Notes under the pieces: generated by a model
What the model was told of the DNA's origin: nothing
Seen by the model: the letters and a program-made list of their open reading frames with translations, nothing else
Databases searched by the model: none
NCBI GenBank assembly: GCA_049588915.1
Contig: JBAVZU010000066.1
Location: forward strand, 725 to 64,724
Length of the DNA: 64,000 nucleotides
Reading direction: 5' to 3'
From: Candidatus Sulfotelmatobacter sp.
GTDB taxonomy: Bacteria > Acidobacteriota > Terriglobia > Terriglobales > Acidobacteriaceae
Position numbers and translations under genes: made by a program
Part shown: positions 43,608-60,943 of the stretch, in pieces
Position numbering within the stretch: position 1 is the first letter of the stretch
Layout: each line of letters opens with the position of its first letter

Positions 43608-45041
43608 CTATTCCCCTGTTCTAGGTGTGACACTGCAAGCTTCCGCGGAAGGACTGCTCGGGCTGCAATTCAAATCTTTGTCCTTCGTCTCGCTTGATGT
43701 TTTCCGATAAAGGACTTTGAGAAAAATAAAGTAAACGACGGCCGCTGCAACAAGCGAAACCAAGGAAGCCATCATGCTGGCGGGGGCCAGCTTTGCGATG
43801 ACGAAGCCAGAAACCAGCGCGGTGACAGCGGCTAGATTCACTCCATGAGTATAGAAACAGGATCCTTTATCTTCGTATGCTTCGTGCAAGTTCAGCCGAG
43901 AACGGCGGATGACAAAGTAGTCGCACAAAAGAATTCCGATCAGGGGGGAGAAGAGATCCGAGAGCGCAAGCAGGAAGCTTCCAAAGTACCGAGTAACTCG
44001 AGAAGCGGCCAGAATTGTTCCCAGGGCACCCATCAATGCTGTACTCTGCCAACGCGAAATCCTGGGGAACATATTGGCCAAAGCCAGCCCAGAGGAGTAC
44101 AGGTTCGCATTATTCGCTGTCCAGCTAGAAGCGATGATCACGATCAGTGCCGGAGCGCCAAGTCCCAGCCTCTGCACCACGCTCACCGCATTCCAGTCCC
44201 CGGTCGCCAGCTTCGAAAGAGCTCCAACCATCCCTAAGAATAAAGATGGCGGAAACGCGCCGAGCATGCACCCAATCCAGTTGTCCCGCTCGCTGACCAC
44301 GTAGCGGGAAATGTCCGAGGCGGTGAAGACGCCGACGATGAGTCCTCCCATAACCAAATCCAGGCCTGTTGTGAGCGACAAGCTGTGGGTGGGGGTGAAG
44401 TGAACGAGGTTCCAATACCCGTACTTTGAAATGATGACGTACAGAATCCATATGCAGAGGCCGGTCAAGCCTGGAACCGCCAGGCGGCTCAGCCATTTTA
44501 TGTTTTCAAAACCGAAAATCGGAGGAAGAGAATTCAGAACGCCGATCAACGCAATGACGATGGCAGTATTGGAAAAGCCGGGCACTCCTTGCAGAGCATC
44601 GTGGGTCGCTTGTCCCGCTAGTTCCGCGGTAACGCCAAACCATCCGACCATCGAGATAAGGATGATGATGGACGAAATCCAGGAACCGCGCGGATGGCCC
44701 ATTGAAAAGCGGCTCGCCACCGTTGTCGAGACGCCGTAGTCGACACCGAAGTAGCCCATCAAAGCCAGCAGCACACCGAGAATGATGTTACCCACCACCA
44801 GCGCCCAGCAGGCCTGCGCCCAACTCAAACCCGGGACGAGCAACCCCCCGAGCAGAAGGCTTGAAAGTGTGATGTTCACTCCGGCTTGAATGACAAACAG
44901 ATCCCACCAACCCTTGGTTCTCTCGCTCTTCGGCACAGCGTCGACGCCGTGCTGCTCGACTTGGAATGCCTCTAACGGCACAGATTCACTCCGGCACTGG
45001 CTACATCGGAAAGACAAAGGGTTCAGAATGAAGAGGTGCAA
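43608..45041 (-). CDS. NCS1-family permease (cytosine/purine/uracil/allantoin/hydantoin type)
   Basis: PKSERTKGWWDLFVIQAGVNI and about 12 TM helices. It starts 5 nt after the upstream DUF917 stop. Confidence 0.85.
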   Translation of the reverse strand: MHLFILNPLSFRCSQCRSESVPLEAFQVEQHGVDAVPKSERTKGWWDLFVIQAGVNITLSSLLLGGLLVPGLSWAQACWALVVGNIILGVLLALMGYFGVDYGVSTTVASRFSMGHPRGSWISSIIILISMVGWFGVTAELAGQATHDALQGVPGFSNTAIVIALIGVLNSLPPIFGFENIKWLSRLAVPGLTGLCIWILYVIISKYGYWNLVHFTPTHSLSLTTGLDLVMGGLIVGVFTASDISRYVVSERDNWIGCMLGAFPPSLFLGMVGALSKLATGDWNAVSVVQRLGLGAPALIVIIASSWTANNANLYSSGLALANMFPRISRWQSTALMGALGTILAASRVTRYFGSFLLALSDLFSPLIGILLCDYFVIRRSRLNLHEAYEDKGSCFYTHGVNLAAVTALVSGFVIAKLAPASMMASLVSLVAAAVVYFIFLKVLYRKTSSETKDKDLNCSPSSPSAEACSVTPRTGE

Positions 45042-45046
45042 ACCGG

Positions 45047-46183
45047 TTAAATGTTACCGGTTCGATGCCTCTCCTCTATAGGAATGTAGGATGCATCATA
45101 GCCGAAATGCTCTGGCCCACACACTCTGAGGCCTGCTGCGGTTCGCCATGGCGAGGGCGCAGGAATTCCGATAATCGTCACTTTCTGTCCCTTCGTGAAA
45201 TCTGGATTGAGAACGGCTCTGCCCGTCGCATTATCGATCATCGTGATGATATCGGGAGACGTGATGGAAACCTTGCCATCCCGCCAGGAAATCAAGTTTT
45301 CATTTTTAAAACCCAGCTTGTACCTTTGCCCGGAGTAAAGCCCCGCTCCGCCGATTTCAACATCGCCGACCAGATAGCCGCCTTTGTCTGCCCAGTCATG
45401 GGCGGAGACCGCTCCCGCAAAAACTTTGTAGCCGTTGCTGGCGTCAAGCACTGCCTGGATCGGATCCTTTTGCGATTCAACCGCGACGCGGTAAGCCTTG
45501 CCGATCTCCTCGCACAGAGTTAGAGAACCCTGAACAACGATGTTTGGCTGCTTGAGCAGCTTGCCGGGCAGCGCCGAGTCTGCGGCTGCGATGTGCATGC
45601 TGATCGTTGAGGCGATGCGGAGAAACTCCTCTTCGCGCGATGGCGTGGCCACCTTGGTGATCAGCAGTTCATCGCCGAACAACGTGGCGGCTGCCGTCGG
45701 CAATAAAGAAATACCCGCCGCAAAGATCGTGCTTTGATCGATTTCCGGCACCGCCCTGCCCGCGGTATCGGCATCGAGTTGTGCGATTCCCAGATGCGCC
45801 GCGGTCGAAAGCGCGTAGGGCGTATTGCCTGCTCCGATCTCTCCCGCGATGACGGCGACAAAATTCTTGCCGACATGCTTCTGCAGCAGCCGGAATGCGA
45901 CGGCGGTTGCTTCGTCCTTGATGCGTGGGAGCTTGTTGAATCGCTCTATTTGTTCGGGAGTGTAAGGAGCCGTGCTGCCCACGTAGTAGGTCGTGGCCGC
46001 GTAGTCGTCATCTTTCATTTCGTCGACGGATATAAGATTGAACTTCAACCCGGCGGCGAGATCGTCGTGGATTCTCTTCAGTCCTGCCTCATAACTCCCG
46101 CCGCCGCCGCTGCCGAGATAGCAGCAGCCCATGATTATGTCTTCAAGATTCTGCCTGGATAAATTGCGCATAATAGCCCTCAC
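45047..46183 (-). CDS. DUF917-family protein (paralogue 2)
   Basis: QNLEDIIMGCCYLGSGGGGS, IAGEIGAGNT and LGIAQLDADTAGRAVPEIDQ are family-typical. Clearly paralogous to 46271-47386. Confidence 0.85.
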   Translation of the reverse strand: MRAIMRNLSRQNLEDIIMGCCYLGSGGGGSYEAGLKRIHDDLAAGLKFNLISVDEMKDDDYAATTYYVGSTAPYTPEQIERFNKLPRIKDEATAVAFRLLQKHVGKNFVAVIAGEIGAGNTPYALSTAAHLGIAQLDADTAGRAVPEIDQSTIFAAGISLLPTAAATLFGDELLITKVATPSREEEFLRIASTISMHIAAADSALPGKLLKQPNIVVQGSLTLCEEIGKAYRVAVESQKDPIQAVLDASNGYKVFAGAVSAHDWADKGGYLVGDVEIGGAGLYSGQRYKLGFKNENLISWRDGKVSITSPDIITMIDNATGRAVLNPDFTKGQKVTIIGIPAPSPWRTAAGLRVCGPEHFGYDASYIPIEERHRTGNI

Positions 46184-46270
46184 TTTAAATGTATTCAGTC
46201 AGCACACGTACGAAGTCATTCGTAAAATTCCGTTTGGTCGATTGGTCATTGGGGAGGGCGAACACCGCTG

Positions 46271-47386
46271 TTACGTCCACTGCATCTGCTCAATCGGAAT
46301 GTATGGCGTATCGAACCCAAAACGCTTCGGTCCGAACAGCTCGATTCCGCGCGGCGTACGCCAATTCGGAGGCGATGGAAAACCGATGACAATCACTTCC
46401 TGGCCTTTTTCAAAGTCCGGGTTCGAAATTGCTTTTGCAGACTCCTTGATCACCATCGTGATCAGGTCCGGGCAAGTGACGGAAAATTTTCCGTCGCGCC
46501 ATGAAACAAGATTCTCATTTTTGTAGGCGATCTTGAAAGTGCTGCCCTGATATTTGCCAGAACCCGAAATGTCGACGTCGCCAACCAGATAGCCCCCCTC
46601 ATCTTTCCAGTGGAAGCCGGAAATCCTTCCCCCGAACAGGCGATATCCGTGGCCTGCGTGCAACACAGCCTGAAGTACATCCTGATTCGCTTCGATCGCT
46701 GCGCGATAGGCTCGCCCGACTTCCTCCGCATGGCTGATGGATCCCTGCACCAGCACTCCCTTCCGCTTCGCGTCTTTTCCGGCGAGCGGAGTGTCAGCAA
46801 CGCCAATTCCCATGCTCACCATCGAGGCCGCGCGAAACAAATCCTCTTCTCGCGAAGTGGCTGCGACCTTCGGAAGGATCATCTCGTCCCCGTACTGCGT
46901 TACTCCGGCTGCGGGCGTAATCGACAGCCCCGCCGCCAGGACTGCATTCTGGTCGATTTCCGGAGCCGCTCGACCGACTGTATCGGCATCCAGCTGCGCA
47001 ATTCCTATGTGTGCTGCAGCCGACATTGCGGCGATGGTATTGCCGGGTCCGATCTCGCCAGCGATAGTGGCGACGAAATTTTTTTGCATGTACCGTTGCA
47101 GCAGTCGAAACGCGGCTGTGGTGGACCTCTCCTCGATGCGGGGAAGCTTCGCGTAGCGCTGCTTCTGCTCATCGGTCGGAGGAGCGGTCGAGCCTACGCC
47201 GTAGGTCGCGGCGGCATAGTCATCATCTTGCATCTCATCGGGAGACATCAATTTGAACGTGAGCCCCGCTTGGAGATCTTCGTGGACGCGTTGCAGACCG
47301 TGCGCGAAGCTGCCGCCTCCGCCCGTCCCCAGGAAGGAGCAGCCGACGACGATGTCCTCCAGGTTTTGTTTCGCCAGAGTGCGCAT
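46271..47386 (-). CDS. DUF917-family protein (paralogue 1)
   Basis: QNLEDIVVGCSFLGTGGGGS, IAGEIGPGNT and IGIAQLDADTVGRAAPEIDQ. Confidence 0.85.
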   Translation of the reverse strand: MRTLAKQNLEDIVVGCSFLGTGGGGSFAHGLQRVHEDLQAGLTFKLMSPDEMQDDDYAAATYGVGSTAPPTDEQKQRYAKLPRIEERSTTAAFRLLQRYMQKNFVATIAGEIGPGNTIAAMSAAAHIGIAQLDADTVGRAAPEIDQNAVLAAGLSITPAAGVTQYGDEMILPKVAATSREEDLFRAASMVSMGIGVADTPLAGKDAKRKGVLVQGSISHAEEVGRAYRAAIEANQDVLQAVLHAGHGYRLFGGRISGFHWKDEGGYLVGDVDISGSGKYQGSTFKIAYKNENLVSWRDGKFSVTCPDLITMVIKESAKAISNPDFEKGQEVIVIGFPSPPNWRTPRGIELFGPKRFGFDTPYIPIEQMQWT

Positions 47387-47411
47387 ATTTCTAATCTGTA
47401 GAAGACTCCTC

Positions 47412-47993
47412 TTAGCTCTGATGGAAGAAAGATGATACGAAGCTGGTTCTCCGAGTGGCGCTTATGTGATCCTTTACCTCGATCCGGCAGAAAACCAACT
47501 TTCCGGCGCTGTTTTGCAAATACGGATAAACAAAAGCGAAATCACCGACTAGTTTTCTGCGCACAATCTCCAATTCAAACTTCCTTTCAAGCTCTGCTTC
47601 AATCCGGCGCAGTATTTCCGCTTGCGAGCTCGGCGGGAGGTTGCCGTGATGCGCAAGATCGGACTCCGACATTCGGATGCCGACGTGCATGACTTGAGAA
47701 ACGTCTAGACCGTTTCGTCCTATGCGGCTTGACTTCCCAATCAAAACCTGCGGCCCGGCGAGTTGGGAGTCGCTCATGCTGCGCACCAGTTCGAGCGGCG
47801 GAAACATATCTCCAATCTGAGCACGAACGGCCACAGGTCTGCGCGGAGGACCTACATTCCACGCGCTCGCGCCTAAGACACCCAGCCCAAGACAGGTCAC
47901 ATTTGCGCATGCCAGATGAATGAAATCGCGTCGTTGCGTAGCTCCCCCTCGTGCTCCGCCCGGTCGATAAAAAACCAGGCGGCTAAAAATCAA
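47412..47993 (-). CDS. Hypothetical protein with a twin-arginine-like signal
   Basis: An in-frame TTG at 47993 gives ..GATQRRDFIHLACANVTCLGLGVLGASAW, a Tat-like T-x-R-R-x-F-I motif plus an h-region. The listed ATG 48083 would overlap the receptor gene by 100 nt. No SD and no family recognised. Confidence 0.45.
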   Translation of the reverse strand: MIFSRLVFYRPGGARGGATQRRDFIHLACANVTCLGLGVLGASAWNVGPPRRPVAVRAQIGDMFPPLELVRSMSDSQLAGPQVLIGKSSRIGRNGLDVSQVMHVGIRMSESDLAHHGNLPPSSQAEILRRIEAELERKFELEIVRRKLVGDFAFVYPYLQNSAGKLVFCRIEVKDHISATRRTSFVSSFFHQS

Positions 47994-50900
47994 ATCTGAT
48001 TGCCAACTGCACTTCTCTGGCGCCACCCAGAGGCCCGGCTGTAGCAAAGAGATTTCCGAACGTAGTGACTGGAGCTGATACATCGAATTCGTCGATCGGA
48101 TTCTGAGAGCCAGGGAACTGGCTGGAAAACTGTCCTGCCGTGCTTCCGAAGTTCACGTTGTTGAAGGCATTGAAGGCTTCGATCCTGAACTGGAGAACCT
48201 GCCTATCGCTCCACGGCATCTTGAATGACTTGGATACACCCAAGTCGGTATCGAAATACGCCGGTCCGAAAATCACGTTCCTGCTGCCTGCGGATCCGGG
48301 CAACGTATAACCGACCTGTGCGTAAGCCGCTGATGGATTGCTGAAAAGGTTGGGAACTCCATTGGGATCTTTCTTCGTCACCGACGTGCTCAATGGACCA
48401 ATAATGGTTCCCGGGCCCGGTTGAAAATCGTTGGTGGCGTAGTTGAAGCCATTGCGAGGCGTAAGTGGGAAGCCGGAGTGCCAACGGATCGTACCGCTAA
48501 ACTGCCAATTGCCAATCAAGGCGTTGAGCGGTCCCGACATTTTCGAGCCAAAGGTCTTTCCGCGGCCAAACGGCAACTGATAGACCCAGTCCCCGTTGAA
48601 GTTGTGCCTCAGGTGGAAATCGGAAAGAGCGCGACCGGCGCGGACATTGAATGCATTCGGAATCTGCCCGTTGACTTGTCCTTCGCTGAGGAACAGATCA
48701 GCGTTTTCTGCCGCCGAACCGTCGTCGATCGACTTGCTAAATACATAGTTCATGTCCAGAATCAGCGGGCCTGCTTTCTTGCGCAGGGAGAGCTGAACAC
48801 TGTTGAAACTTGATGTTCCTTCTGAAGTCCACGACGGAATGCTATCGAATTGCGGTCCAAACAGAACTCGTCCGTCTTGCTGCGGATCTACAGCCAACGA
48901 CCAGGGACTGCCGGCGCCCGGGAAGGGGTCGTCCATCGCGAGCACAGCATCGCTCCAATCCGGAGCATAGGTTTGCACGATGGAGTAAAAAGCCTGCGTG
49001 GGCGTCAGGTTCGCAACGGCAGGATTACGCAGATAACCTGCCGCATAAGCTGGCATATTGGGCATCAAGTCCTGAATCCATGCAATGGGAGTGATTTGCG
49101 ACGCAGGCGTCTGGTTGGTGAGGCTTCCCATCTGCTTTACGAGAAGGTTGTAGGCCTGCCACAGCGTCTGCCCCGATTTCACATCCTTGAATTCGCCCAA
49201 GTACTGGCCATAGTCTTTTTTCAGCAGCAGTCGATGGCCCAGATTCCCGACATACGCCGCTTCAACCGTAAAACCTTTCCCAAGCTCCCGCTCCAGACTG
49301 AAATCCATGGCATATGAATACGGAACCTTCAAACTCTGGTTTACCGCAAAGTCGAAATTGTCGATGCCCGTATCCGGCGTGAATGGAAAAGTCACACTGG
49401 TCGGAGCGTTGGGGAAGAATGTCGACAAGGCGGGAAATCCCGAACATCCAGCCGCCACGCTGCAAGTCCCGGAGAATCGCGGAGCCGTCGCCAGGCTGAA
49501 AAGCCCTACGGGAGTCAGTTCACTATTCACCAGGCCCGGATCGCCGGCGTTGATCGCCTGATCCGTTGCGATGGCTCCTCCCATGCGATCGTAGTACATT
49601 CCAAAGCCCGCCCGGATAGAACTCTTGCCCGGTCCTCCGAAAATCTTTCCCAGAGTTCCATCGTGATAGCTGGGAGAATATGCCAGAGACAGCCGGGGAG
49701 CGAAGTTGCGCGTGCTGGGGTTGTACCAAGAAGGCTTACCGTTTGCCTTTCCGCCAGGAATGAAGGAGAGAAGGGGCGCTGCGTCAGCCGGAATTCCCTG
49801 ATTCATGTTCGCCACGCGGATGTCCCACCACGAATTGAGGTTCATGGTCGGAATCGTCTGCAGCCCGTTTTGTTCCCACGGGACGCCGAAGTAGCTGTAG
49901 CGCAGACCGTAGTTGAGAGTGAGATTTGGCTTCACCCGCCAACTGTCCTGCACGTACCACTCGAAATCGTTCTCGGCATAGTTTCGATTTAACGGCGCAC
50001 CCGTTGGCGGTGTGAGCGCACCGGTCTTCGGGTTGGCTAACAGCGAAGCTTCCGCGTAACTCAACGAGCCCGTGAGTTCCATGAACGAAGTTAGGAATGC
50101 GGTGGTATTCAAGGGTACCTGTTGCCCCTGAGCCTGCAGTTCGTTGATCGGATCGCGGCAATCGTTGGAACAAAACGCGAAGTCTCCCAGAAAAAAGGTC
50201 GGATACGAATTTTGATAGGTCAAGAAGTGGTTTCTGGGAAGCTGAACATCAGCTCCCACCTGAATCGTGTGTGTTCCGCGAGTCCACGAGAGATCGTCCC
50301 TGAATTCTTCCGTAGGAACAGTGCGGGCAAACCCGCGTGTAAAGTTCAACGGATCGGAAAAATTTTCCGCAGACAGTGCGTCGGAAGTCCCGCCACTTTC
50401 ATTTACTCCCTGGCGTATGAATCCCCATTCGGCGTTGTTGATCAGGTTGGTGCGCAACACTGCCGTGTATCCAACTGCCATGCCCTTGCTGTCGTTAAAG
50501 AAGCGATTGTTTGGCGGAAGGCCGGGAAGTTCAGCAGGGGTAATGTCAGTCTTGATATCCGCGAGATTGCCGCGCCAGAACAGCATGTGTTTCCCGTTGC
50601 CCATCAAATTGAAATCCAGGCGAGCCGTGTAAACGCCGTTCGTGGTATTTGTCGGCGAATTGAAGGTAAAACCCGAATAGTTCAGGCCGCCGTCGAGTCC
50701 CAGACTTGGAGCATTGCCGGATGGATATAAACTCATGAACTGCAACATGGCGGGATTGACGCCGCAACCCGCGGAGCCAGGTTGCGAGCATCCAGGATCA
50801 AGCGCCGCCACCTTACTCGGCGTCAGTTCCACACAGTTTCCCAAGCCGTAGGGGCAGGGAACCACTCCGTTGCCCGGATTGGCTACCTGGTAAATCAGTT

Positions 50901-51957: not shown

Positions 51958-52088
51958 GGTCGCCCTCAGGAAGCCGCATCTAGAGCAGGAAGTTTCGTGG
52001 CCGGAAAGTTACGCCTTTTTCCGCAGCCATGTCAAGATAAATTTGTTTGACATCCGGCACATTTGTGTTAGAACAAGCACACTTTTGG

Positions 52089-52109
52089 AAACAGATTGAA
52101 AACAGATTG
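52089..52109 (+). promoter_or_regulatory. Tandem AAACAGATTG 10-mers with 11-bp periodicity in the divergent promoter region
   Basis: AAACAGATTG at 52089-52098 and again at 52100-52109. They lie between the receptor operon start (51957) and the hyuB-type gene (52232/52247). Confidence 0.3.
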
Positions 52110-52231: not shown

Positions 52232-53980
52232 TTGAAAGGAAAAGGGTTGGCCGATCCAATCACGACTGAGGTCATTCGCTACGAGCTGATTTCCGCCGCC
52301 GAGGAAATGAAGCGGTGTTTCAAGCGCACGACAACACTGGCCATTCTTTACGAACTCAATGACTTTGGCATTTCCATCTATGATCACGCCCTGAACCTGA
52401 TTGCCGACGTCCCGGGAATCCCGTTGTTTTCGGGCACGCTCAACCATTGCGTGCAGTCGTGCCTCGACCAGGTGGGCATCGCCAACCTGGCGCCTGGCGA
52501 CGTGCTCACGACCTCGGTTCCTTTTGATACTGGCAGCCAGCCCATCGATGCGGCCTTGGTTGCTCCGATCTTTTTCGAAGATGAAATCGTAGCCTATACC
52601 GCTTTGAAGGCTCATATGGGCGATCTCGGCGCGATCGATCCCTATCCCACCACCTCAACGGAGATGTATCAGGAAGGACTCTTGATGCCCGCTCTGTATC
52701 TGTTTCGCAAGGGCGAACTTCAAGAGCAAATCGTGCGCCTTATCAAGGCCCACTCACGCATTCCCAACACGACTGCAACGAATTTCCTTGCGGCCGCTTC
52801 AGCATTGCGACTGGGCGGGCGGCGCGTCGAAGCGCTTGTCGCGCGCTATGGGAAAGATACCTTTCATAGAGCTGTTCAGGAAATGATCTCGCACGGCGAG
52901 AGAATATGCCGCGCAGCCGTTGCCGCCATCCCGGACGGCACATGGGAGATTGCCGATTGGATGGATAACAACGGTGTCGACCCCGAGCCTGTGAAATTAC
53001 ACGCGACCGTAACAGTGCGCGGCAGCGATTTCATTATCGATCTCTCCGGTTCGGCTCCCCAGCAGCGCGGCCCGATCAATTCGCCATTCCCGGGGACCAT
53101 ATCGGCGTGCCGCTACGTACTCAAGTCCCTCACCACTCCTCTGCTGCCCGCCAACGAAGGACATTTTCGACCCTTGCAGGTAATTGCGCCGTCTGGCTCG
53201 ATTTTCAACCCTACTCCTCCGGCTGCCACTTTTCTCTATGCCTGGCCCGAGCAGCGCCTGATGGATCTGATACCGATGGCATTAGCCAAAACAATTCCCC
53301 AGCGAGTGACAGGCCACTCGGGTGGAGACTGCTGCGATTTTCTGATGACCTACTTTGATTATGAGACTGGCCGCAGGGATTACGGTGGCGGGGTGGAGGC
53401 CGTGGGCATGGGGGCTAGCCGCGACCGCGACGGCGAGAATGCGTTGCTTCACCACTGCGAGTCCGGCTGCTGCAACATTCCGAATGAAATCGAAGAATCG
53501 CGTGTTCCGCTGATGGTTGAACGATATGAACTGCGGGAAAATTCGGGCGGGGCCGGCAAGTTTCGCGGCGGAGTAGGCGTGGTCAAGGAGTATCACGCAC
53601 TCGAGTCCACCACGGCGATATCCATTGCCGAGCGCACCGAGGCCAGCACCGTCAGCGGAATCGAAGGCGGGAAGGGCGGCGCGTTGAACGAAATCACCTA
53701 TTTTCCCGGTACGCCTCAGGAACTAAAGCGCGGAAAACATAAAGCCGAGCTTCGCGCGGGGGATCACGTCCTGATTCGCAGTGGGGGCGGCGCGGGTTGG
53801 GGGAATCCTTTGGAGCGCGATCGGCAAGCCGTTCTCGCCGATGTCATTGCCGGCTACGTCAGCCGAGGCGCAGCTGAGAGGGACTACGGCGTTGTGCTCC
53901 GTGAGATTGACTGCGAACTGACAGTAGACGCCGAGCGCACAACCGCATTGCGCGACGCGCTCGCCCACAAACTGCCGTAG
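52232..53980 (+). CDS. Hydantoinase B / oxoprolinase-family subunit (HyuB type), copy 1
   Basis: DPITTEVIRYELISAAEEM is a typical HyuB N-terminus. Also ..SGGGAGWGNPLERD. The likely start is TTG 52247, behind AAAGGAAAAGGG. Confidence 0.85.
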   Translation: MKGKGLADPITTEVIRYELISAAEEMKRCFKRTTTLAILYELNDFGISIYDHALNLIADVPGIPLFSGTLNHCVQSCLDQVGIANLAPGDVLTTSVPFDTGSQPIDAALVAPIFFEDEIVAYTALKAHMGDLGAIDPYPTTSTEMYQEGLLMPALYLFRKGELQEQIVRLIKAHSRIPNTTATNFLAAASALRLGGRRVEALVARYGKDTFHRAVQEMISHGERICRAAVAAIPDGTWEIADWMDNNGVDPEPVKLHATVTVRGSDFIIDLSGSAPQQRGPINSPFPGTISACRYVLKSLTTPLLPANEGHFRPLQVIAPSGSIFNPTPPAATFLYAWPEQRLMDLIPMALAKTIPQRVTGHSGGDCCDFLMTYFDYETGRRDYGGGVEAVGMGASRDRDGENALLHHCESGCCNIPNEIEESRVPLMVERYELRENSGGAGKFRGGVGVVKEYHALESTTAISIAERTEASTVSGIEGGKGGALNEITYFPGTPQELKRGKHKAELRAGDHVLIRSGGGAGWGNPLERDRQAVLADVIAGYVSRGAAERDYGVVLREIDCELTVDAERTTALRDALAHKLP

Positions 53981-54017
53981 ATCGATAACCGTAGATCGAT
54001 AACCGTAGAGCAATAAC
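53976..54017 (+). repeat. Three tandem 14-nt units CGTAGATCGATAAC (third unit CGTAGAGCAATAAC)
   Basis: Read directly. The first unit contains the hyuB-type stop codon. The three TAG triplets (53978, 53992, 54006) fall in all three frames. Confidence 0.85.
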
Positions 54018-54034
54018 GGAGATCAGAATCCAAG

Positions 54035-56128
54035 ATGCTACACAGCCAACCAGCAATACGCTTCGCCGTCGATGTAGGAGGAACTTTCACTGACCTGATC
54101 AGCTGGGATCTCCGCAGCGGTGAAGTTCGATCGAACAAGACGTTGACCATGATTGAGCCGAGCCAAGGCGTGCTGGACGTCATACGTAAGGAGAGGCTCC
54201 TCCTGGGCGATGTAAATCTATTCGTCCACGGCACGACCTTGGGGATCAACGCGGTGCTCGAAAGAAAAGGCGCTTCTACCGGACTGATCACCACCAAGGG
54301 ATTTCGCGATGTCATCGAAATCGCGCGAATGGATCGGCCCCATATGTACAACATCCTCTACCAGAAGCCGCCGACGCTGGTTCCCCGGCATCTCCGCATG
54401 GAAGTCGATGAACGCATCAATGCGCGTGGCTGCGTTCTGCGGCCGCTTGAACGCGCTGGAGTCGCGGACGCAATCCATCGGTTTCGGCGTCACAAGGTGC
54501 AGGCGGTTGCAGTGTGCCTGCTGCATTCCTACGCCAATCCCGCCCACGAAGAAGAAATCGGAGAAATCTTCGCGAAAGAGGCTCCGGAGATTTACGTCAC
54601 GCTCTCCCACAGAATCTTGAGGGAATACTCCGAGTACGAGCGCACGATGTCAGCCGTGATGAACAGCTATATTCAACCGAAGGTTCAGGACTATCTCGAC
54701 CACTTGCAGGAGAATTTGCAGAACGAAGGCTTTTCGCAAAGATTTCTGCTGCTTCGTTCCAGCGGCGGCGCAATGAGCTTCACCGAAGCGCGCGAGAGTC
54801 CGATTTTTACGTTGATGTCCGGACCTGCCGGGGGAGTATTGGGTGCAAGCAGGCTTTCTGCCGCAACAGGCCTGCAGAACCTGATCACGGCAGATGGGGG
54901 CGGCACAAGCTTCGACGTTTCTTTGATCGCGCAGGGGCAACCGCGCGTTGTTTCGGAAACTATGATCGAGGGGTACAAACTGCTGCTGCCGATTATGGAC
55001 ATCCGTTCGATTGGCGCTGGCGGTGGCAGTATTGCATCGATCGATGCTGGAGGTGCCTTGCAGGTAGGCCCCGAGAGCGCCGGAGGAAATCCAGGTCCGA
55101 TCTGTTACGGGCGCGGTGGAAAGCAACCCACCGTAACCGATGCTGCCCTTTGTATGGGTTTGCTCGACCCGAAGTATTTTCTTGGCGGCGAGATGCAGCT
55201 CAATTATGAATTGGCCAGCGCAGCGATCGATTTGAAAATTGCGGGCCCGTTGGGGCTAGACATACGGCGGGCCTCCAGCGGCATCTTGGCCATCGTCGAA
55301 ACGAAAATGGCGGGCGCAATCCGCGAAATCACCGTCGAAAAAGGTTTCGACCCTCGCGATTTTACTTTGCTCGCCTTTGGAGGCTCGGGTCCGTTTTTCG
55401 CCTGCAATCTTGCCCGGAAATGCGAAATTGGCAGGGTCGTGATCCCAGTGGCTCCCGCAAATTTTTCGGCGATGGGTATGTTGTTGTCCGACCTGGTCCA
55501 TCACTACTCGCGGACTATGATCCTGGACCTGAAAGACGCAACTGCGGACCAGATTGATGCAATCTTTCGTGAGTTGGAGTCGCTAGGGCGAGGCGCTCTG
55601 GATTCGGATGGGATTCCTGCCGAGAGACGGGAGTTTCATCGTAGTCTTGACATGCGCTATTTCGGACAAGGTGGCCATTCCGTAACCGTGCCTGTTCCAA
55701 CCGGAACTTTCACTGCCGAACAACGACAAGGATTGGCGGCGTCGTTCCATCAGATGCATGAAAGCACTTACGGACATCGAACCGAGGAGCCCGTGCAGAT
55801 CGTCCATTTCCGGCTGCAGGCGATCGGACGAGTCGAGAAGCCGGAGTTTCGGCCGATTCCAAGCGGAGACGAAAATGCCTCGCATGCGATCAAGCAGCGA
55901 CGAGATGTCTACTGGCGTGAACTCGACCGCATCGTTCCTTTTCCTGTTTACGACCGCGCTAAACTTCTGGCCGGAAATTCTTTGGCTGGCCCTGCGATCG
56001 TGGAAGAAGCGACCGCAACCAGCGTGCTCGGTCCGGGAGACATGTTGACCGTCGGCGCTTACGGTGATCTGATCATCGAGATTGCCCAACCCACAAGCGG
56101 AGTACGGAATGCCTCGATCACAGAGTGA
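54035..56128 (+). CDS. Hydantoinase A / oxoprolinase-family subunit (HyuA type), copy 1
   Basis: FAVDVGGTFTDLI, GGGTSFDVS and IGAGGGSIA are ASKHA-fold motifs of the family. Confidence 0.9.
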   Translation: MLHSQPAIRFAVDVGGTFTDLISWDLRSGEVRSNKTLTMIEPSQGVLDVIRKERLLLGDVNLFVHGTTLGINAVLERKGASTGLITTKGFRDVIEIARMDRPHMYNILYQKPPTLVPRHLRMEVDERINARGCVLRPLERAGVADAIHRFRRHKVQAVAVCLLHSYANPAHEEEIGEIFAKEAPEIYVTLSHRILREYSEYERTMSAVMNSYIQPKVQDYLDHLQENLQNEGFSQRFLLLRSSGGAMSFTEARESPIFTLMSGPAGGVLGASRLSAATGLQNLITADGGGTSFDVSLIAQGQPRVVSETMIEGYKLLLPIMDIRSIGAGGGSIASIDAGGALQVGPESAGGNPGPICYGRGGKQPTVTDAALCMGLLDPKYFLGGEMQLNYELASAAIDLKIAGPLGLDIRRASSGILAIVETKMAGAIREITVEKGFDPRDFTLLAFGGSGPFFACNLARKCEIGRVVIPVAPANFSAMGMLLSDLVHHYSRTMILDLKDATADQIDAIFRELESLGRGALDSDGIPAERREFHRSLDMRYFGQGGHSVTVPVPTGTFTAEQRQGLAASFHQMHESTYGHRTEEPVQIVHFRLQAIGRVEKPEFRPIPSGDENASHAIKQRRDVYWRELDRIVPFPVYDRAKLLAGNSLAGPAIVEEATATSVLGPGDMLTVGAYGDLIIEIAQPTSGVRNASITE

Positions 56129-57845
56129 CATCTTCACGCTGGAGATCATTCAGGACGGTCTGATTTCCGCCGCAGAAGAGATGTTTCACGCTTTCGGCCG
56201 CACCAGCAAAAGCCCGGTGATTTACGAAGTACTCGATTACGCCTGCGGCCTCACCGATCACGAAGGCCAGTTAATCGCACAAGCAGCGGGCGTGCCAGGC
56301 TTTTTGGGCACGCTGGATCTGGCAGTGAAACAAACTATCGGCAAGTTCAATGGGAACATCCATGGCGGCGACGTTTTCATAACGAACGATCCGTACGGGA
56401 ACGGAACTCACCTGAACGACATCACGCTGATTCGTCCGATTATGTACAAAGGCGCGATCGTTGCATTTGCCGTGAGCAAAGGCCATTGGTCTGACGTCGG
56501 CGGCATGCATTTCGGCAGCTGGACCTCCGATTCCACTGAGATTTATCAAGAGGGACTTTTCTTTCCCGTGATGAAGCTGTACGAGAAAGAGAAAGCGTCT
56601 GAGTCTCTCATCGACCTGATTCGTCACAACGTGCGCATTCCTGAGATGACCATCGGTGACATGTTGTCGCAGGAAGCCTCTCTGCGCGTTGCCGCGCGTC
56701 GCGTGGAAGAACTCTGCGCCAAGTACGGCTTGCCTTCGATGCAGCGCGCGTTTCAGAAAATATTGACCTCAGGCGAGAGGGTGAGCAAAAATGCGCTCAA
56801 GCATCTGCCGCACGGTGTTTTTGAGGCGGAAGATTTCATCGATGACGATGGAATTCATGATGATCCGATCCGCGTGCAGATTAAGCTCACGATTTCCGCG
56901 CGGGAGTTTGTCGTCGATCTGCGCGGCTCGAGCCCGAAAGTCAGCGGCTCCATCAATGCTTCCTATCCGGCGTCGCTGTGTACCGCGAAAGCGACATTCA
57001 AGGCGATCACGTCTCCGCACGCTCCGGCCAACGAAGGCAATTTCCGTCCCCTACGCCTGCTCACCGATCCCGGCAGCATCTTTCATGCGCTTCCGCCCGC
57101 CCCGACTTCGACCTATTGGGAGACCGATGCTTATGTTGGGGACTTGATGATGAAGGCGCTGGCCCCCCATATTCCTGGTCGCGTGGGCGCCGGTCACTTT
57201 CTCAGCGTTTGCGGAACGATCCTGGGTGGTTATGACGAACGAAAGAAACAGCCGTACGCTCTCGTTGAACCGCAACCCGGGGGTTGGGGTGCAACGTCGA
57301 CTCACGATGGCGCAAGCGCGCAGTTTTGTCTCGGCGACGGCGAAACCCTGAATATGTCGACCGAAGTCATCGAGGCAAGATACCCGATCCGCGTTGAACA
57401 GTATGCCTTGAACACTGAAGCGGGAGCGGGCTCTGGGAAATTTCGCGGGGGCTTTGGAGTTGTGAAGGACTATCGCGTGCTGAGTCGTGAAGCCAATTTC
57501 ACTGCTTCCTTTGGAAGATCAAGATTTCCTCCGTGGGGACTCTCGGGAGGTGGCGCGGGAAGCTGCAATCGCGTGTCGATTCTTTCTGCTGGAGCGCCTC
57601 CCGAATCGCGCGGCAAAATCGCAGCCAGAAAACTCCATCAGGGCGATATGGTTCGGCTCGCCACGGGCGGAGGTGGTGGCTTTGGCCCGGCGTTCGAACG
57701 TGATCCACAAGACGTTCAAGCCGACGTTCGCAACGAATTCCTCTCGATTGATCAGGCGCAGCAAATCTATGGCGTCGTCCTCAATGGCGAGACATTGCGG
57801 GTCGACCAGAAAGCAACTGCGGTTCTGCGAGAGAAGCAGAATTGA
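56109..57845 (+). CDS. Hydantoinase B / oxoprolinase-family subunit (HyuB type), copy 2
   Basis: ATG 56109 gives MPRSQSDIFTLEIIQDGLISAAEEM. Also ..TGGGGGFGPAFERD. 20-nt overlap with the preceding HyuA-type gene. Confidence 0.9.
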   Translation: MPRSQSDIFTLEIIQDGLISAAEEMFHAFGRTSKSPVIYEVLDYACGLTDHEGQLIAQAAGVPGFLGTLDLAVKQTIGKFNGNIHGGDVFITNDPYGNGTHLNDITLIRPIMYKGAIVAFAVSKGHWSDVGGMHFGSWTSDSTEIYQEGLFFPVMKLYEKEKASESLIDLIRHNVRIPEMTIGDMLSQEASLRVAARRVEELCAKYGLPSMQRAFQKILTSGERVSKNALKHLPHGVFEAEDFIDDDGIHDDPIRVQIKLTISAREFVVDLRGSSPKVSGSINASYPASLCTAKATFKAITSPHAPANEGNFRPLRLLTDPGSIFHALPPAPTSTYWETDAYVGDLMMKALAPHIPGRVGAGHFLSVCGTILGGYDERKKQPYALVEPQPGGWGATSTHDGASAQFCLGDGETLNMSTEVIEARYPIRVEQYALNTEAGAGSGKFRGGFGVVKDYRVLSREANFTASFGRSRFPPWGLSGGGAGSCNRVSILSAGAPPESRGKIAARKLHQGDMVRLATGGGGGFGPAFERDPQDVQADVRNEFLSIDQAQQIYGVVLNGETLRVDQKATAVLREKQN

Positions 57846-57905
57846 TTGCGGAAGTCGTTAGCCAAGAGCGGAAATTGATCTGAGGAAACTTCATCTGAGG
57901 TAGTG

Positions 57906-59978
57906 TCAGCGAATTTCAATCTGCAGGTTGCCATATGCATCGACCTGCAGGTGGTCTCCACCATTTACGATAGTGGTCGACGTTGGCTCTTCGATGACCG
58001 CCGGGCCATTCAGTCGCGAACCCGGTGGCAGGTTGCTGCGCTCAAAGACTTGCACTTTCCCCGATTTGTTTTCCAGATGCATCAGTCGCGATCCCTTGGG
58101 TTTCGCGCGCGCGAGTTTTCGTTGTGAAATCGCTCGGATTGGGGGTTTGGGCAGCTTCGCATACGCCACCAGGTGGCAGGTAACGATTTCCATCGGGTCC
58201 TGAAGAGTGAACTCGTAGGCACGCTGATGCAACTCTTCAAAGTGCCGGCGCAGGACTCCTATGGCCTGATTTTTTAGCGTCGCCTGAGCTATAGGCACTT
58301 TCACGCTGTGTTCCTGGCCTCGATAGCGGGCATCGACATAGCGTTCGATATGAATCTGCTCTTCCCGGCGCTCTTCGGAGAATGCCTTGCGGGACTGTTC
58401 TTCCAGTTCGCTGAAAGCCGTCTGCAGCTGTTCGCCGCACTGCCGATCGACAAGCATAATCCGAGTACGCAGGAAATCTCGCCGCAAATCCGCAACGAGC
58501 ATTCCCCATGCCGAGAACACTCCAGGCAATGGAGGAATTAAGACCTTTGGGATACCGAGTTGCCGCGCGACACTGGAGGCGTGCAGCGGCCCGCCGCCTC
58601 CATATGCAACGAGTGTGAAATCCCGAGGATCATAGCCGCGCTTCACCGAGACCAGCTTGAGTGCGTTGATAATTTGCGAGTTGGCAAGCCGCACTGTCCC
58701 TTGAGCGAGTTTGTCGACAGGAATCCCCAATTTCCTCGACTCGGAAGCAAACGCATCATATGCACGCTCCTTGTTCAGATGAATGTCTCCGCCGAGGAAA
58801 TAATCGGGATTCAGAACGCCGCCAAGCAGGAACGCATCGGTCACCGTTGGTTTCGTTCCTCCAAGGCCGTAGCAGGCAGGACCGGGCACTGCACCCGCGC
58901 TTACCGGGCCAACCCGCAGCGCGCCCGTTTCATCTTTGTTGAAAATGCTTCCGCCCCCTGCGCCGATCTCGACGATATCCAAACATGGCACCTTCAACGG
59001 GTATCCCGCCGAGGTCGAACTCTTCTCGATGAAGTAATCGCTGTTAATGCGCAGTTGGCCTTTGTGGATTAGAGTAGTCTTCGCGGTTGTTCCACCAACA
59101 TCGAGAGTCAGCAGATTCGACTCGCCGATCGACTCTCCGATCGCGCGTGCACCGATCGCTCCTGCAACTGGTCCCGATTCCACAACCCGAATGGGCGCCC
59201 GCTTGGCCTGCGAGAAGCTCATCACGCCCCCATTCGATGCCATCGCATACAGTTGCGCACCCATGCCAACCTTGCGCAGACCATCTTCCAAATTTGCCAG
59301 GTATCGAGCCACGACTGGCTGAACATAACTGTTCAGCACCGTGGTGTTGGCCCGCTCATACTCCCGGTATTCTTGCGTCAGTTCGTGAGAGCAGCAGACC
59401 AGGATCTCTGGTGCATGCTTGCGTATCCAGTCCGCGCATTTTCGCTCATGCGCACCATTCGCGTAGGCGTTGAGGAAACACACCGCAATGGCCTCCACAT
59501 CTTTTTCTTTGCAGCGGCGAATGTGCGCGGGCAGGTGCGCGAGATCGAGATCTTCAAGCACTTGCCCATCAGCGTCCAAACGCTCGCGTACTTCGAAGCT
59601 GAGTTCGCGAGGGATAAAGGCAGGGGGCTTGGTGTAAGTGAAGTTGTAAATGTCGGGCCGGTTCGAGCGCTGTATTTCGAGCACATCGCGAAAGCCGCGG
59701 GTAGTAAACAGAGCAGTTCTTACGCCTTTTCGTTCGGTAAGAGCATTAATTACGACGGTTGAGCCGTTCGCAAAATACTTCTTCACCGATCGTGGAGGGA
59801 TGCCGGATTTTGCCAACGCGCTGATGATCCCGCGCGAAAAATCTTGGGGCGTAGTGGAATCTTTCGCCACGATGAGCTGACCGGTCCGTCGGTTATAGCC
59901 AACTAGGTCGGTAAAAGTTCCACCGACGTCCGTAGCGACGTTAATAGTCAATTCAACTCTCCGGCGCTCGTTTCTCAA
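57906..59978 (-). CDS. Hydantoinase A / oxoprolinase-family subunit (HyuA type), copy 2
   Basis: VATDVGGTFTDLV, DVGGTTAKT and IGAGGGSIF. 4-nt overlap with the upstream gntR-type gene. Confidence 0.9.
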   Translation of the reverse strand: MRNERRRVELTINVATDVGGTFTDLVGYNRRTGQLIVAKDSTTPQDFSRGIISALAKSGIPPRSVKKYFANGSTVVINALTERKGVRTALFTTRGFRDVLEIQRSNRPDIYNFTYTKPPAFIPRELSFEVRERLDADGQVLEDLDLAHLPAHIRRCKEKDVEAIAVCFLNAYANGAHERKCADWIRKHAPEILVCCSHELTQEYREYERANTTVLNSYVQPVVARYLANLEDGLRKVGMGAQLYAMASNGGVMSFSQAKRAPIRVVESGPVAGAIGARAIGESIGESNLLTLDVGGTTAKTTLIHKGQLRINSDYFIEKSSTSAGYPLKVPCLDIVEIGAGGGSIFNKDETGALRVGPVSAGAVPGPACYGLGGTKPTVTDAFLLGGVLNPDYFLGGDIHLNKERAYDAFASESRKLGIPVDKLAQGTVRLANSQIINALKLVSVKRGYDPRDFTLVAYGGGGPLHASSVARQLGIPKVLIPPLPGVFSAWGMLVADLRRDFLRTRIMLVDRQCGEQLQTAFSELEEQSRKAFSEERREEQIHIERYVDARYRGQEHSVKVPIAQATLKNQAIGVLRRHFEELHQRAYEFTLQDPMEIVTCHLVAYAKLPKPPIRAISQRKLARAKPKGSRLMHLENKSGKVQVFERSNLPPGSRLNGPAVIEEPTSTTIVNGGDHLQVDAYGNLQIEIR

Positions 59979-60943
59979 GAAAGGATGCCGACTTCCAATC
60001 GCGCCTTTTCAAGTGAAACTGGATCGGCGCGCAACGTCGGCGTAGCGACATCAGGTCTGAGTCGCACATTTTCCGGCAGTTCGTCCCAGATGCGATTGCT
60101 GAAAAACAGCAGTTGCCATTTTTCACGTTCCAGCCACTCGTCGAGAGGTTCGATCTCCTCGATCGCAAGAGCCCCAAAGGCAAGTCCGGCATTCGGAAAA
60201 AGGCTCTCAATCTGCCGCAGAAATAGACGACCGTACTCTTCAAGATCGCGTTTCTTGAATACAAGGGCAACGCGACTGCCTGGGGCCAGCTGCGCAATTC
60301 TCGTCATCACCTTCTGATCCCAGTGCACCGAGACGATCACCACTTTCAGGTTGTGTTTGCGTGCAACTCTGCATGCTTCCTCGTAATGAAACGGAACGGT
60401 GCACAAATACCGCATTCCCCGAGTGTCCCGGTGCGGTAGCTTCCGCAGGGTGTCAAAGTCTATGCCGCGCACGGGAACTCCCCAGGCCTGAGAAATATCG
60501 GAGGCGAATTGCTCGGCCTGCACGCGATTGCATTCCCCGAAGACGATTCGGTTGTCGCTGTCTCTAGCTTGGCGAACCTTGTGTTGCAGGTACAGCGCGA
60601 AGCTTTGCGGATGAATCCCGAGTTTCAGAACCTGCTGCAAAACTGTCTCCGCGAGCTTGCGCACCTGCTGTTTTCTGCTTTCGCGATGTCCTCCATATTC
60701 CAATTGCCGGTTCACGATAACGCGACGGCTCCGGCTGATGGTGAGAATCCCGGCGCGCGCCAATTCTTCATAAGCGCGCCGCACGGTTGCCGGGCCAATA
60801 TCCAGTTCCCCGCCTAACTCGCGAATCGAAGGCAGAGTATCGCCTGGCTGCAGTTCGCCGAACGCCAACGCCATTCTAATCCGCTCCTTGATTTGCTCGT
60901 GAGCCGGATACGGATTGGCGGTGTCCACAAAGAAATCGATCAC
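59975..60943 (-). CDS. GntR-family transcriptional regulator with an unassigned C-terminal domain of about 250 aa
   Basis: The N-terminal winged HTH reads QIKERIRMALAFGELQPGDTLPSIRELGGELDIGPATVRRAYEELARAGIL. I could not place the C-terminal part in the FadR, HutC, MocR or YtrA types. Confidence 0.8.
   Translation of the reverse strand: MIDFFVDTANPYPAHEQIKERIRMALAFGELQPGDTLPSIRELGGELDIGPATVRRAYEELARAGILTISRSRRVIVNRQLEYGGHRESRKQQVRKLAETVLQQVLKLGIHPQSFALYLQHKVRQARDSDNRIVFGECNRVQAEQFASDISQAWGVPVRGIDFDTLRKLPHRDTRGMRYLCTVPFHYEEACRVARKHNLKVVIVSVHWDQKVMTRIAQLAPGSRVALVFKKRDLEEYGRLFLRQIESLFPNAGLAFGALAIEEIEPLDEWLEREKWQLLFFSNRIWDELPENVRLRPDVATPTLRADPVSLEKARLEVGILS

Follow-up and report, generated by a model that had tools for sequence, protein, structure and literature searches.

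The closest described relatives of the locus reported here are the HyuA/HyuB hydantoinases (hyuABC of Pseudomonas sp. NS671, the enzyme of P. putida 77, and the fused N-methylhydantoinase, 7hk5/9h03) and the caprolactamase CapAB of Pseudomonas jessenii (6yra), an (alpha-beta)2 cyclic-amide hydrolase that depends on ATP and bicarbonate (PMC8453981). Acetophenone carboxylase Apc (5l9w) combines two different HyuA-type subunits in one hetero-oligomer, the thiohydantoin desulfurases share the two-domain PF06032 + PF20906 architecture known as DUF917, and Oar of Myxococcus xanthus is a TonB-dependent transporter (TBDT) required for protein secretion (PMC6434023). Here, we analyzed a 64,000-nt stretch of DNA from the peat-soil acidobacterium Candidatus Sulfotelmatobacter sp. 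(Acidobacteriota, Terriglobia; contig JBAVZU010000066.1), hereafter the window, in which the region 43550–61000 brings members of these families together. All locus coordinates are window positions, and labels such as L001 and L003 denote the loci of relatives. The region encodes a large outer-membrane barrel, a small protein with a twin-arginine motif, two DUF917 paralogues, an NCS1-family permease, two HyuA/HyuB pairs, and a GntR-family regulator. We consider that it probably represents one GntR-controlled regulon for scavenging and opening a hydantoin-like N-heterocycle, that is, a cyclic ureide or amide, probably chiral and 5-substituted.

Comparison with the described systems revealed both likenesses and differences. 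The Hyu proteins of the locus have the two-subunit architecture of the hydantoinases (~690 + 585 amino acids [aa]), the three A-subunit ATP motifs and the B-subunit metal site of the N-methylhydantoinase-type enzymes, and the B-then-A gene order of capBA, and the residues tested by mutagenesis in caprolactamase (D11 and D295 of CapA; D41, H99, D101/D102, and H124 of CapB) map onto A1, A2, and B2. The similarity to the hydantoinases is remote, however; each subunit has two paralogues where those enzymes have a single pair, and, unlike hyuABC, the locus contains no hyuC-type carbamoylase and is coupled to a barrel, DUF917, and a novel GntR regulator. The scores against the CapAB equivalogs reach 1/4 to 1/2 of the cutoff, B1 lacks the equivalent of H99, and the locus context is entirely different. 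Apc offers a precedent for A1 and A2 in one complex, but its similarity is lower (gamma and delta subunits, 103–346 bits), its extra small subunits are absent here, and the B proteins of the locus are of hydrolase-type length. The hydantoin-type ring substrates of the thiohydantoin desulfurases fit a hydantoinase-rich locus, whereas the other genes of the ergothioneine pathway are absent from it. The barrel resembles Oar by architecture, with an N-terminal CarboxypepD_reg domain, a plug-like segment, and a very large barrel, but unlike the secretion protein it is embedded in, and apparently co-regulated with, a small-molecule catabolic operon.

A further counterpart is a module annotated on Firmicutes plasmids, with the order DUF917–short HyuA–"cytosine permease"–DUF917–short HyuA (Parageobacillus thermoglucosidasius pGEOTH01, NC_015665; Planococcus glaciei, NZ_CP041325). 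It likewise combines DUF917 (often two copies), an NCS1 carrier (28–37% identical), and hydantoinase/oxoprolinase-family ATPases in one operon. Unlike the locus, these modules encode short HyuA proteins only (~460–520 aa) without HyuB, have no outer-membrane component, and carry a sigma-54 type regulator, and their DUF917 proteins are only 30–34% identical to those of the locus. Because this annotated module recurs, the theme of DUF917, NCS1, and hydantoinase-family genes is widespread, and it is uncharacterized in the literature that we found. An earlier, sequence-only reading of the window had regarded the locus as unlike any characterized one, which applies to the B-A-B / A layout and the barrel, but not to this theme. 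What is new here is that an Oar-type barrel is coupled to such genes, that two pairs stand in a conserved B-A-B / A layout with a Gln in B1, and that a twin-arginine-motif accessory and a dedicated GntR subfamily with its putative operator are present. Repressor-controlled catabolic clusters of a transporter, Hyu-family enzymes, and DUF917 are already known, uncharacterized, from annotated genomes, and the locus involves no new principle.

The genes of the locus are conserved as a unit. Their closest relatives, with 86–96% protein identity, were found in Candidatus Sulfotelmatobacter and other Acidobacteriota metagenome-assembled genomes (scan with one genome per species). The complete gene set occurs in no fewer than six lineages of Terriglobia, among them Sulfotelmatobacter-like and Acidiferrales lineages, and is held together through inversions and reshuffling. 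The order gntR>hyuA2> <hyuB2<hyuA1<hyuB1 >barrel>small ORF>DUF917 (one or two copies)>NCS1 (ORF, open reading frame) is found in the window's clade (L025, L026, L031, and L035), in Acidiferrales (L011/L018 and L004/L048), and in one further lineage (L013/L017). In L003/L019, a Sulfotelmatobacter variant, all components are kept but rearranged into four transcription units, with a gene for an Asp/Glu/hydantoin racemase (PF01177) added after hyuB2 (L003 1364–2146; L019 11097–11879). The rearranged layout of L003 fits the presence of two IS4/IS5-type transposase genes (insertion sequence families) directly downstream of its NCS1 gene (13444–15607). The more distant L015/L016, with DUF917 59% identical, have only a minimal operon with all genes in one direction (barrel–small ORF–DUF917–NCS1–HyuB–HyuA) with a single A/B pair and without a gntR of this type. 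The barrel gene of this operon is called as two genes in L015 (260 and 1067 aa; 5357–9339) and as one in the near-identical assembly L016 (1283 aa; 5490–9341), and the split in L015 is probably an assembly frameshift.

A metagenome scan anchored on the barrel, which lies mid-locus, gave 19 contigs with an orthologue of at least 80% identity, and all 19 were syntenic as far as each extends. The hyuB1 gene lay upstream of the barrel in 10 of the 10 contigs reaching there, and the small ORF and/or DUF917 lay downstream in 16 of 16. Beside the barrel paralogues (at most 45% identity, n = 4), none of the locus genes was present; the barrel is dedicated to this unit. The synteny of the DUF917, NCS1, and barrel genes with the Hyu genes, which the sequence-only reading had named as a test of its view, was strict in every relative examined. 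The flanks differ even from those of a 90%-identical relative, indicating that the unit, and not the neighbourhood, is conserved. In both Acidiferrales lineages (L018 8203–9606 and L048 2651–3994; copies 58% identical), a clan-MH metallopeptidase gene with M28/M20 matches adjoins gntR. This peptidase was considered as a missing downstream hydrolase and rejected; it is absent from the window and the other lineages and was not assigned to the unit.

Analysis of the regulator and the control regions suggested that the two arms of the locus are controlled together. The GntR protein has a winged helix-turn-helix (wHTH) domain (PF00392, 53.9 bits against a cutoff of 27), which Foldseek placed in the YtrA/HutC type with probability 1.0. 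Only 33 full-length homologues were found among 5.8 billion proteins, all of them acidobacterial and several on the same contigs as DUF917 loci, and the regulator appears restricted to loci of this type. Residues 76–322 match no Pfam or NCBIfam domain, and none of the known GntR effector domains (FadR/FCD, HutC/UTRA, MocR, YtrA, and AraR) was recognized in the protein. The C-terminal domain (~residues 125–322; 59975–60568) yielded 71 clusters among 1.84 billion representatives and stood behind a GntR wHTH in 10 of 10 sampled clusters. In the AlphaFold2 model (predicted local distance difference test [pLDDT] score 82.9), it adopts an alpha/beta fold, with a weak Foldseek match to periplasmic sugar-binding proteins (TMq 0.27–0.29). 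By these comparisons, the protein looks like a member of an undescribed small GntR subfamily.

A perfect palindrome, GCACAC-AA-GTGTGC, is located 28–41 nt upstream of the gntR start and is the sole perfect match in the 64 kb, and a related palindrome, GCACATTTGTGT, is located at 52057–52068 in the divergent spacer. The palindrome was spotted by eye and then counted by a pattern census. The pattern RCACA-N2-3-TGTGY has 32 copies in ~0.54 Mb (the window and the loci of relatives), and 32 of 32 lie either in the barrel/hyuB spacer or directly upstream of gntR or hyuA2-gntR. L015, which lacks gntR, and the loci of the barrel paralogues have no copy. Every locus that extends far enough has an equivalent palindrome ahead of gntR or hyuA2-gntR; the window has exactly two copies, compared with a shuffle mean of 0.45. 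When the divergent spacers of 7 lineages were aligned (37% mean column identity), the sole conserved block consisted of the palindrome and two TTGACA hexamers, which stand back to back in the window (minus strand 52035–52030; plus strand 52047–52052). The GCACATTTGTGT palindrome is flanked by a TTGACA box and a TAGAAC hexamer oriented toward hyuB1, that is, it occupies the spacer of the promoter-like element of hyuB1. The TTGACA elements are termed promoter-like only, because a formal sigma-70 scan did not call these conserved boxes and the −10 hexamers are weak. An inverted-repeat search of the control regions returned nothing at its length threshold. Since all copies of the pattern stand at the two control positions, it is very probable that both arms belong to a single regulon under the dedicated GntR protein, which most likely represses both arms and its own gene. 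The linkage of the two arms assumed by the sequence-only reading thus gains a candidate basis in the operator-like palindrome shared by both control regions.

The four Hyu proteins form four clean orthogroups, with A1 and A2 41% and B1 and B2 36% identical. HyuA1 and HyuA2 contain the domains Hydant_A_N, Hydantoinase_A, and Hydant_A_C (E-values of 1e-14 to 1e-94), and HyuB1 and HyuB2 contain full-length Hydantoinase_B. By the ASKHA motif definitions of the caprolactamase structure paper (DxGGTxTD, DxGGT, and GxxPGP; PMC8453981), the ATP sites are intact in both A1 (DVGGTFTD13, P1; DGGGT287, P2; GGNPGP350, adenosine) and A2 (DVGGTFTD17, P1; DVGGT293, P2; GAVPGP362, adenosine). The metal tetrad D-H-D-H is complete in all 7 HyuB2 orthologues. 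Alignment of HyuB1 to CapB (6yra) and 7hk5 gave the tetrad D44/Q103/D106/H128 (codon 103, 52538–52540), with Gln in place of the first His (GSQPID) in 9 of the 9 B1 orthologues that coexist with B2, while the lone HyuB1 of the single-pair L015 operon retains His (GTHPAD), which suggests that HyuB1 changed after HyuB2 arrived. N-methylhydantoinase 7hk5 has its Gln at the fourth ligand (D-H-D-Q) rather than the first; Gln in the tetrad is therefore compatible with activity, and B1 need not be inactive. No locus is without HyuA1/B1, not even the minimal one, whereas HyuA2/B2 occur only together with gntR, and hyuA2 always adjoins gntR in either order. By this distribution, HyuA1/B1 is the core pair and HyuA2/B2 an add-on. 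In L017 (11017–13066), whose lineage has neither the small ORF nor DUF917a, the hyuA2 call falls into two pieces (117 and 562 aa), and this split may be a frameshift or the beginning decay of the second pair.

Comparison with solved and curated enzymes placed the Hyu proteins nearer hydrolases than carboxylases. The scores against N-methylhydantoinase 7hk5 and caprolactamase 6yra were 493/400 bits for A1, 381/380 for A2, 290/191 for B1, and 283/209 for B2, and those against the carboxylases were lower (54–346 bits). The caprolactamase equivalogs (NF050156 and NF050157; cutoff 1000 bits) gave 552.6 for A1, 492.2 for A2, 237.5 for B1, and 265.1 for B2, and the acetophenone/acetone carboxylase equivalogs gave 101–359 bits against cutoffs of 1250–1500. 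The B subunits are 582 and 587 aa long, compared with 684–776 aa in the acetophenone/acetone carboxylases, and no carboxylase small-subunit gene was found among the locus ORFs. The Hyu proteins reach no NCBIfam equivalog cutoff, and by these scores they appear to lie within the superfamily but inside no characterized enzyme family. The sequence-only reading had asked whether both pairs fall into the housekeeping 5-oxoprolinase clade; the equivalog scores, and the bacterial housekeeping enzyme being the unrelated PxpABC (PMC8453981), speak against this.

The same scores bear on whether the substrate could be a lactam or 5-oxoproline, in which case the Hyu pairs would be ATP-dependent lactamases or oxoprolinases (for pyroglutamate, valerolactam, or caprolactam-like or oxindole-type compounds) and DUF917 an unrelated accessory. 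The caprolactamase alpha and beta models are the only NCBIfam models matched by the Hyu proteins, but the scores of 237–553 bits are far under the cutoff of 1000. A2 is as near to caprolactamase (380 bits) as to N-methylhydantoinase (381), whereas A1, B1, and B2 are clearly nearer the latter. The family does take in lactamases, eukaryote-type oxoprolinases, and the IaaCE oxindole hydrolase (PMC8453981), and the lack of a carbamoylase is what a lactam substrate would predict. On the other side, bacteria use PxpABC as the housekeeping oxoprolinase, the characterized DUF917 members act on (thio)hydantoins according to their family names, and L003/L019 encode a hydantoin-family racemase. A lactam substrate is thus conceivable but rather unlikely, and we favor a hydantoin-type compound because of the nearness to N-methylhydantoinase, the known substrates of DUF917, and this racemase. 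The recurrence of DUF917, cytosine-permease-type NCS1, and hydantoinase-family genes on Firmicutes plasmids is a further hint at a hydantoin-type substrate.

The two DUF917 paralogues, 57% identical to each other, both contain the two Pfam domains now named S-Me-THD_N and S-Me-THD_C (PF06032 + PF20906; E-values of 1e-35 to 5e-53; 123–180 bits against a cutoff of 27), and their PDB relative is 2o3i. Their only NCBIfam matches are the thiohydantoin desulfurase and S-methyl-thiohydantoin desulfurase equivalogs (NF058529 and NF058532), at 77–84 bits against cutoffs of 440–450, so they appear to be members of the DUF917 family but not those desulfurases. To our knowledge, the only characterized DUF917 enzymes swap the C2 thio or methylthio group of thiohydantoins for oxygen in the ergothioneine pathway. 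That DUF917a/b are true (S-methyl-)thiohydantoin desulfurases, serving ergothioneine catabolism by acting on a thiohistidine-derived thiohydantoin, is very improbable. The S-Me-THD-like Pfam names and the two equivalog matches speak for it, but the scores are far below the cutoffs, no ergothionase or thiourocanate-hydratase homologue is present in the locus or the window, and the later steps of the described pathway are not HyuAB-based but use metal-dependent, ATP-independent hydrolases. The sequence-only reading had proposed a tie of DUF917 to thiohydantoin metabolism and to neighbouring hydantoinase genes, and both are borne out by the Pfam and NCBIfam names and the annotated plasmid loci. 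A literature search found no primary paper on DUF917 or thiohydantoin desulfurase; one side remark describes DUF917 as uncharacterized and enriched near hydantoin racemases.

Analysis of the relatives indicated that one DUF917 copy can suffice. The sole DUF917 is of the a type in L011/L018, of the b type in L013, L027, and L032, and of a basal form in L004 and L015. The duplication, which the sequence-only reading had counted among the defining traits of the locus, is therefore dispensable; it arose within Terriglobia. These single-copy loci speak against an obligate DUF917a/b heterodimer, which was rejected. Both copies are under strong purifying selection (ratio of nonsynonymous to synonymous substitution rates [dN/dS] of ~0.05) and keep nearly all family-invariant polar residues, and a pseudo-enzyme role for one copy was therefore rejected. 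The nearest non-acidobacterial relatives (43–52% identity) are stand-alone genes with unrelated neighbours.

The NCS1 permease contains the Transp_cyt_pur domain (143.5 bits against a cutoff of 23.5) and is syntenic in all loci. It falls below every NCBIfam equivalog cutoff (CodB model, 184 against 326 bits; allantoin permease, 57 against 620) and is equidistant from the Mhp1 hydantoin permease (106 bits) and the CodB cytosine permease (105 bits). Since the homologue alignments begin at residues 10–21, its true start is probably ~20 codons downstream of 45041, and the first ~20 codons would be untranslated.

The DUF917 and NCS1 proteins also allow a creatinine-type route, in which DUF917 would strip the exocyclic C2 substituent of a 2-amino- or 2-imino-imidazolinone (creatinine or an oxidized purine of the guanidinohydantoin type) to give a hydantoin that is opened by an N-methylhydantoinase-like HyuA1B1. 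Known DUF917 enzymes, as their names and the ergothioneine pathway indicate, perform a hydrolytic exchange at C2 of an imidazolidinone ring, but the family has no experimental tie to deamination. Among solved structures, A1, B1, and B2 have their best homologue in N-methylhydantoinase, which itself has a Gln in its metal tetrad, although the likeness to 7hk5 is at the level of a remote homologue and not of an orthologue (for background on the ATP-dependent N-methylhydantoin step, see PMC12623156). The NCS1 protein is as near to cytosine-permease-type carriers as to Mhp1. Neither an N-carbamoylsarcosine amidase nor a sarcosine oxidase or creatininase is found in or near the locus, however, and the racemase of L003/L019 would be pointless for the achiral N-methylhydantoin. 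We regard this route as improbable.

Analysis of the barrel indicated a strong OMP_b-brl_4 match (451 bits) and a C-terminal Phe (...IRFDF). Its architecture of CarboxypepD_reg, plug-like segment, and very large barrel is Oar-type and TBDT-like. The Plug domain (PF07715) scored 22.1 bits against a cutoff of 23.9, over profile positions 10–106 of 107 and only when the segment was scanned alone, compared with 75.6 bits in the window's other TBDT. A sequence search of the PDB matched only the CarboxypepD_reg domain, and no TonB or ExbBD genes were found in the 64-kb window. The sequence-only reading had proposed a TonB-dependent receptor; the large barrel and the C-terminal Phe agree with this, but by its domains the protein appears to be Oar-type rather than a classical receptor.

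The small ORF downstream of the barrel encodes a twin-arginine motif (RRDFIHLA) and a cleavage-like A-S-A site, and the motif is conserved. In four other lineages, it has a textbook twin-arginine start (MKRRDFIHLA and similar). The ATG start of these lineages corresponds to ACG at 47937–47939 (minus strand) in the window, and also to ACG in L001 (~8238) and L005 (~8216); a Shine-Dalgarno-like, purine-rich stretch, GGAGGGGGAG, is retained upstream of the ACG. In the window, a TTG at ~47991–47993 is the sole canonical in-frame start upstream of the twin-arginine motif that is not deep inside the barrel gene, and in L005 a stop codon (TGA) in frame, four codons upstream, leaves no canonical start from which the motif could be translated. 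The window's clade has gained an internal Met directly after the signal (G[DE]MFPPLELV), which is used by gene callers. Judged from these alignments, either ACG would initiate translation or the window's clade would make a signal-less cytoplasmic form of 140 aa from the internal Met. The ORF evolves fast, with a dN/dS of 0.32–0.40 that indicates coding under purifying but relaxed selection. It has 23 database homologues and no match in Pfam, and its AlphaFold2 model, from a shallow alignment, is unusable (pLDDT 46.5). It is present directly after the barrel in most loci and missing in L013, L027, and L032, which are one lineage.

These two genes could instead form an export pair, in which the Oar-type barrel secretes the small protein, exported by the twin-arginine translocation (Tat) system, to capture or process the substrate outside, as with Oar and PopC of Myxococcus; or the barrel arm could be functionally apart from the Hyu arm. 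In favor of a pair, the TBDT Oar is needed for secreting protein (PMC6434023), the barrel matches the Plug profile weakly, and the gene for the small protein, where present, always comes next after that for the barrel and shows the rapid evolution common among exposed proteins. Three loci keep the barrel without the small ORF, however, and in the window's clade the signal is without a canonical start codon. The barrel is moreover co-conserved with the cytoplasmic enzymes and has a control region and putative operator in common with them, which fits nutrient import. Export, or a separate barrel arm, thus seems highly doubtful.

The sequences establish the gene content, the conservation of the unit and the dedication of barrel and regulator to it, the shared palindrome, the intact ATP sites, and the pattern at the metal sites. 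For the favored reading, a regulon for a hydantoin-like N-heterocycle, we infer the direction of transport, the chemistry, the order of the steps, and the repression as follows. The Oar-type, TonB-dependent-type barrel would carry the compound across the outer membrane; import is deduced from the locus context, because Oar itself is needed for protein secretion. The small Tat-motif protein might act as a periplasmic accessory, dispensable and fast-evolving, and the NCS1 symporter, as judged from its family, would bring the compound into the cytoplasm. There, a DUF917 hydrolase may modify the ring, by analogy with the C2 exchange on thiohydantoins, and ATP-dependent HyuAB-type amidohydrolases would open it, with HyuA1/B1 as the ancestral core enzyme. 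The later addition HyuA2/B2 may widen the specificity (e.g., so that the opposite enantiomer or another ring is accepted) or form a mixed complex with A1/B1. The GntR protein is predicted to bind RCACA-N2-3-TGTGY both at the divergent promoter and ahead of the operon that encodes it, and repression would be lifted when the substrate or product binds the novel C-terminal domain.

Several observations weigh against this reading. The plug match of the barrel is sub-threshold, and the founding Oar protein serves protein export, not import (PMC6434023). The chemistry of DUF917 is extrapolated from distant relatives, with equivalog scores below 1/5 of the cutoff, the NCS1 protein resolves to no substrate class, and HyuB1 is without one canonical metal ligand. 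The small Tat-motif protein is missing in one lineage and, in the window's clade, has no canonical start codon that would include the signal. The promoter hexamers escaped the formal sigma-70 scan, and both the binding of GntR to the palindromes and its sign are predictions. The substrate is proposed at the level of a compound class. No enzyme for the ring-opened product, such as an N-carbamoyl-amino-acid amidohydrolase, is present in the window's locus, and the route is therefore not demonstrably complete. The sequence-only reading had described a complete route from the outer membrane to the cytoplasm; an uptake and ring-opening unit is supported, but completeness is not, as a product enzyme is lacking and import by the barrel is deduced.

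A bolder form of the hypothesis, which we consider unlikely, is an undescribed pathway that would combine Oar-type import of a small N-heterocycle, a new DUF917 C2 exchange on an imidazolinone- or thiohydantoin-like ring, a mixed (A1B1)(A2B2) hydantoinase whose B1 became specialized (for a second substrate or for regulation) after B2 was acquired, and sensing by a new GntR effector domain. If true, it would provide the first small-molecule nutrient for the very abundant acidobacterial class of Oar-type barrels. Terriglobia such as Sulfotelmatobacter are dominant in acidic peat and forest soils and hard to culture, and their genomes encode hundreds of Oar-type barrels, nearly all without an assigned substrate. 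The locus links one such barrel to cytoplasmic, ATP-driven opening of a probably hydantoin-like ring, and the predicted regulator and operator make the substrate question experimentally approachable. It is also a natural experiment on DUF917, with two interchangeable paralogues, and on the specialization of Hyu subunits, with the His-to-Gln change of B1 tied to the presence of B2. The locus may thus serve as an entry point to the use of N-heterocycles in soil and to the function of acidobacterial Oar-type barrels.

The layout of the locus is given in Table 1. All ten ORFs of the sequence-only reading were found again in the ORF list with the same strands and spacing, and their families were reproduced with Pfam and NCBIfam. 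In the minus-strand operon, the gaps are 5 nt (NCS1/DUF917b), 87 nt (DUF917b/a), and 25 nt (DUF917a/small ORF). HyuB1 and HyuA1 are separated by 54 nt, HyuA1 and HyuB2 overlap, the convergent HyuB2 and HyuA2 are 60 nt apart, and gntR and hyuA2 overlap by 4 nt. The left boundary is sharp, with nucleotide homology to the 90%-identical relative (L001) stopping at 43550, 58 bp past the NCS1 stop codon. The neighbours are unrelated to the locus: genes for a BNR/sortilin-repeat protein, tRNA-Val, and galactokinase flank it at one end, and a chemoreceptor gene flanks it at the opposite end. The GC content of the locus is the same as that of the flanks, and this flat profile gives no compositional signal of horizontal gene transfer; the "island" is thus a divergently transcribed unit, not a compositional island. 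No riboswitch or leader RNA was found in a search of 43000–62000.

Table 1. Features of the locus, and of the window's cobalamin cluster, in window coordinates
Feature	Position	Strand	Remarks
NCS1-family permease	43608–45041	minus	Last gene of the minus-strand operon; maximal ORF; PF02133, 1e-41
DUF917 / S-Me-THD-like paralogue b	45047–46183	minus	PF06032 + PF20906
DUF917 / S-Me-THD-like paralogue a	46271–47386	minus	PF06032 + PF20906
Small ORF with twin-arginine motif	47412–47993; maximal ORF 47412–48083	minus	Translation and alignment
Oar-type outer-membrane barrel	47983–51957	minus	First gene of the minus-strand operon; CarboxypepD_reg + OMP_b-brl_4 (1e-134)
Core of the divergent control region	52030–52075		Sequence; conserved across loci
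HyuB1, B subunit of the core pair	52232–53980	plus	PF02538, 5e-144
HyuA1, ATP-binding A subunit of the core pair	54035–56128	plus	Three HyuA Pfam domains
HyuB2, second B subunit	56082–57845	plus	PF02538, 5e-165
HyuA2, second ATP-binding A subunit	57906–59978	minus	Three HyuA Pfam domains; co-transcribed with gntR
GntR-family regulator	59975–60943	minus	PF00392 wHTH
Perfect palindrome upstream of gntR, putative autoregulatory operator	60971–60984		Sequence
Cobalamin riboswitches, two	19401–19578 and 21102–21307		In the cobalamin cluster
Classical TBDT, CarboxypepD_reg + Plug + TonB_dep_Rec barrel	21316–23760		In the cobalamin cluster

The window contains a separate, ordinary cluster for cobalamin uptake and salvage (19401–28051), which, besides the riboswitches and the classical TBDT, includes genes for a BtuF-like binding protein, FecCD/ABC components, CobT, CobS, and a CobC-like phosphatase. 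At 1438–7562, three consecutive large plus-strand ORFs (745, 671, and 563 aa) match no Pfam family at E ≤ 1e-5, and they are preceded by an ORF with a Cep192_D4-like (Ig-like) domain.

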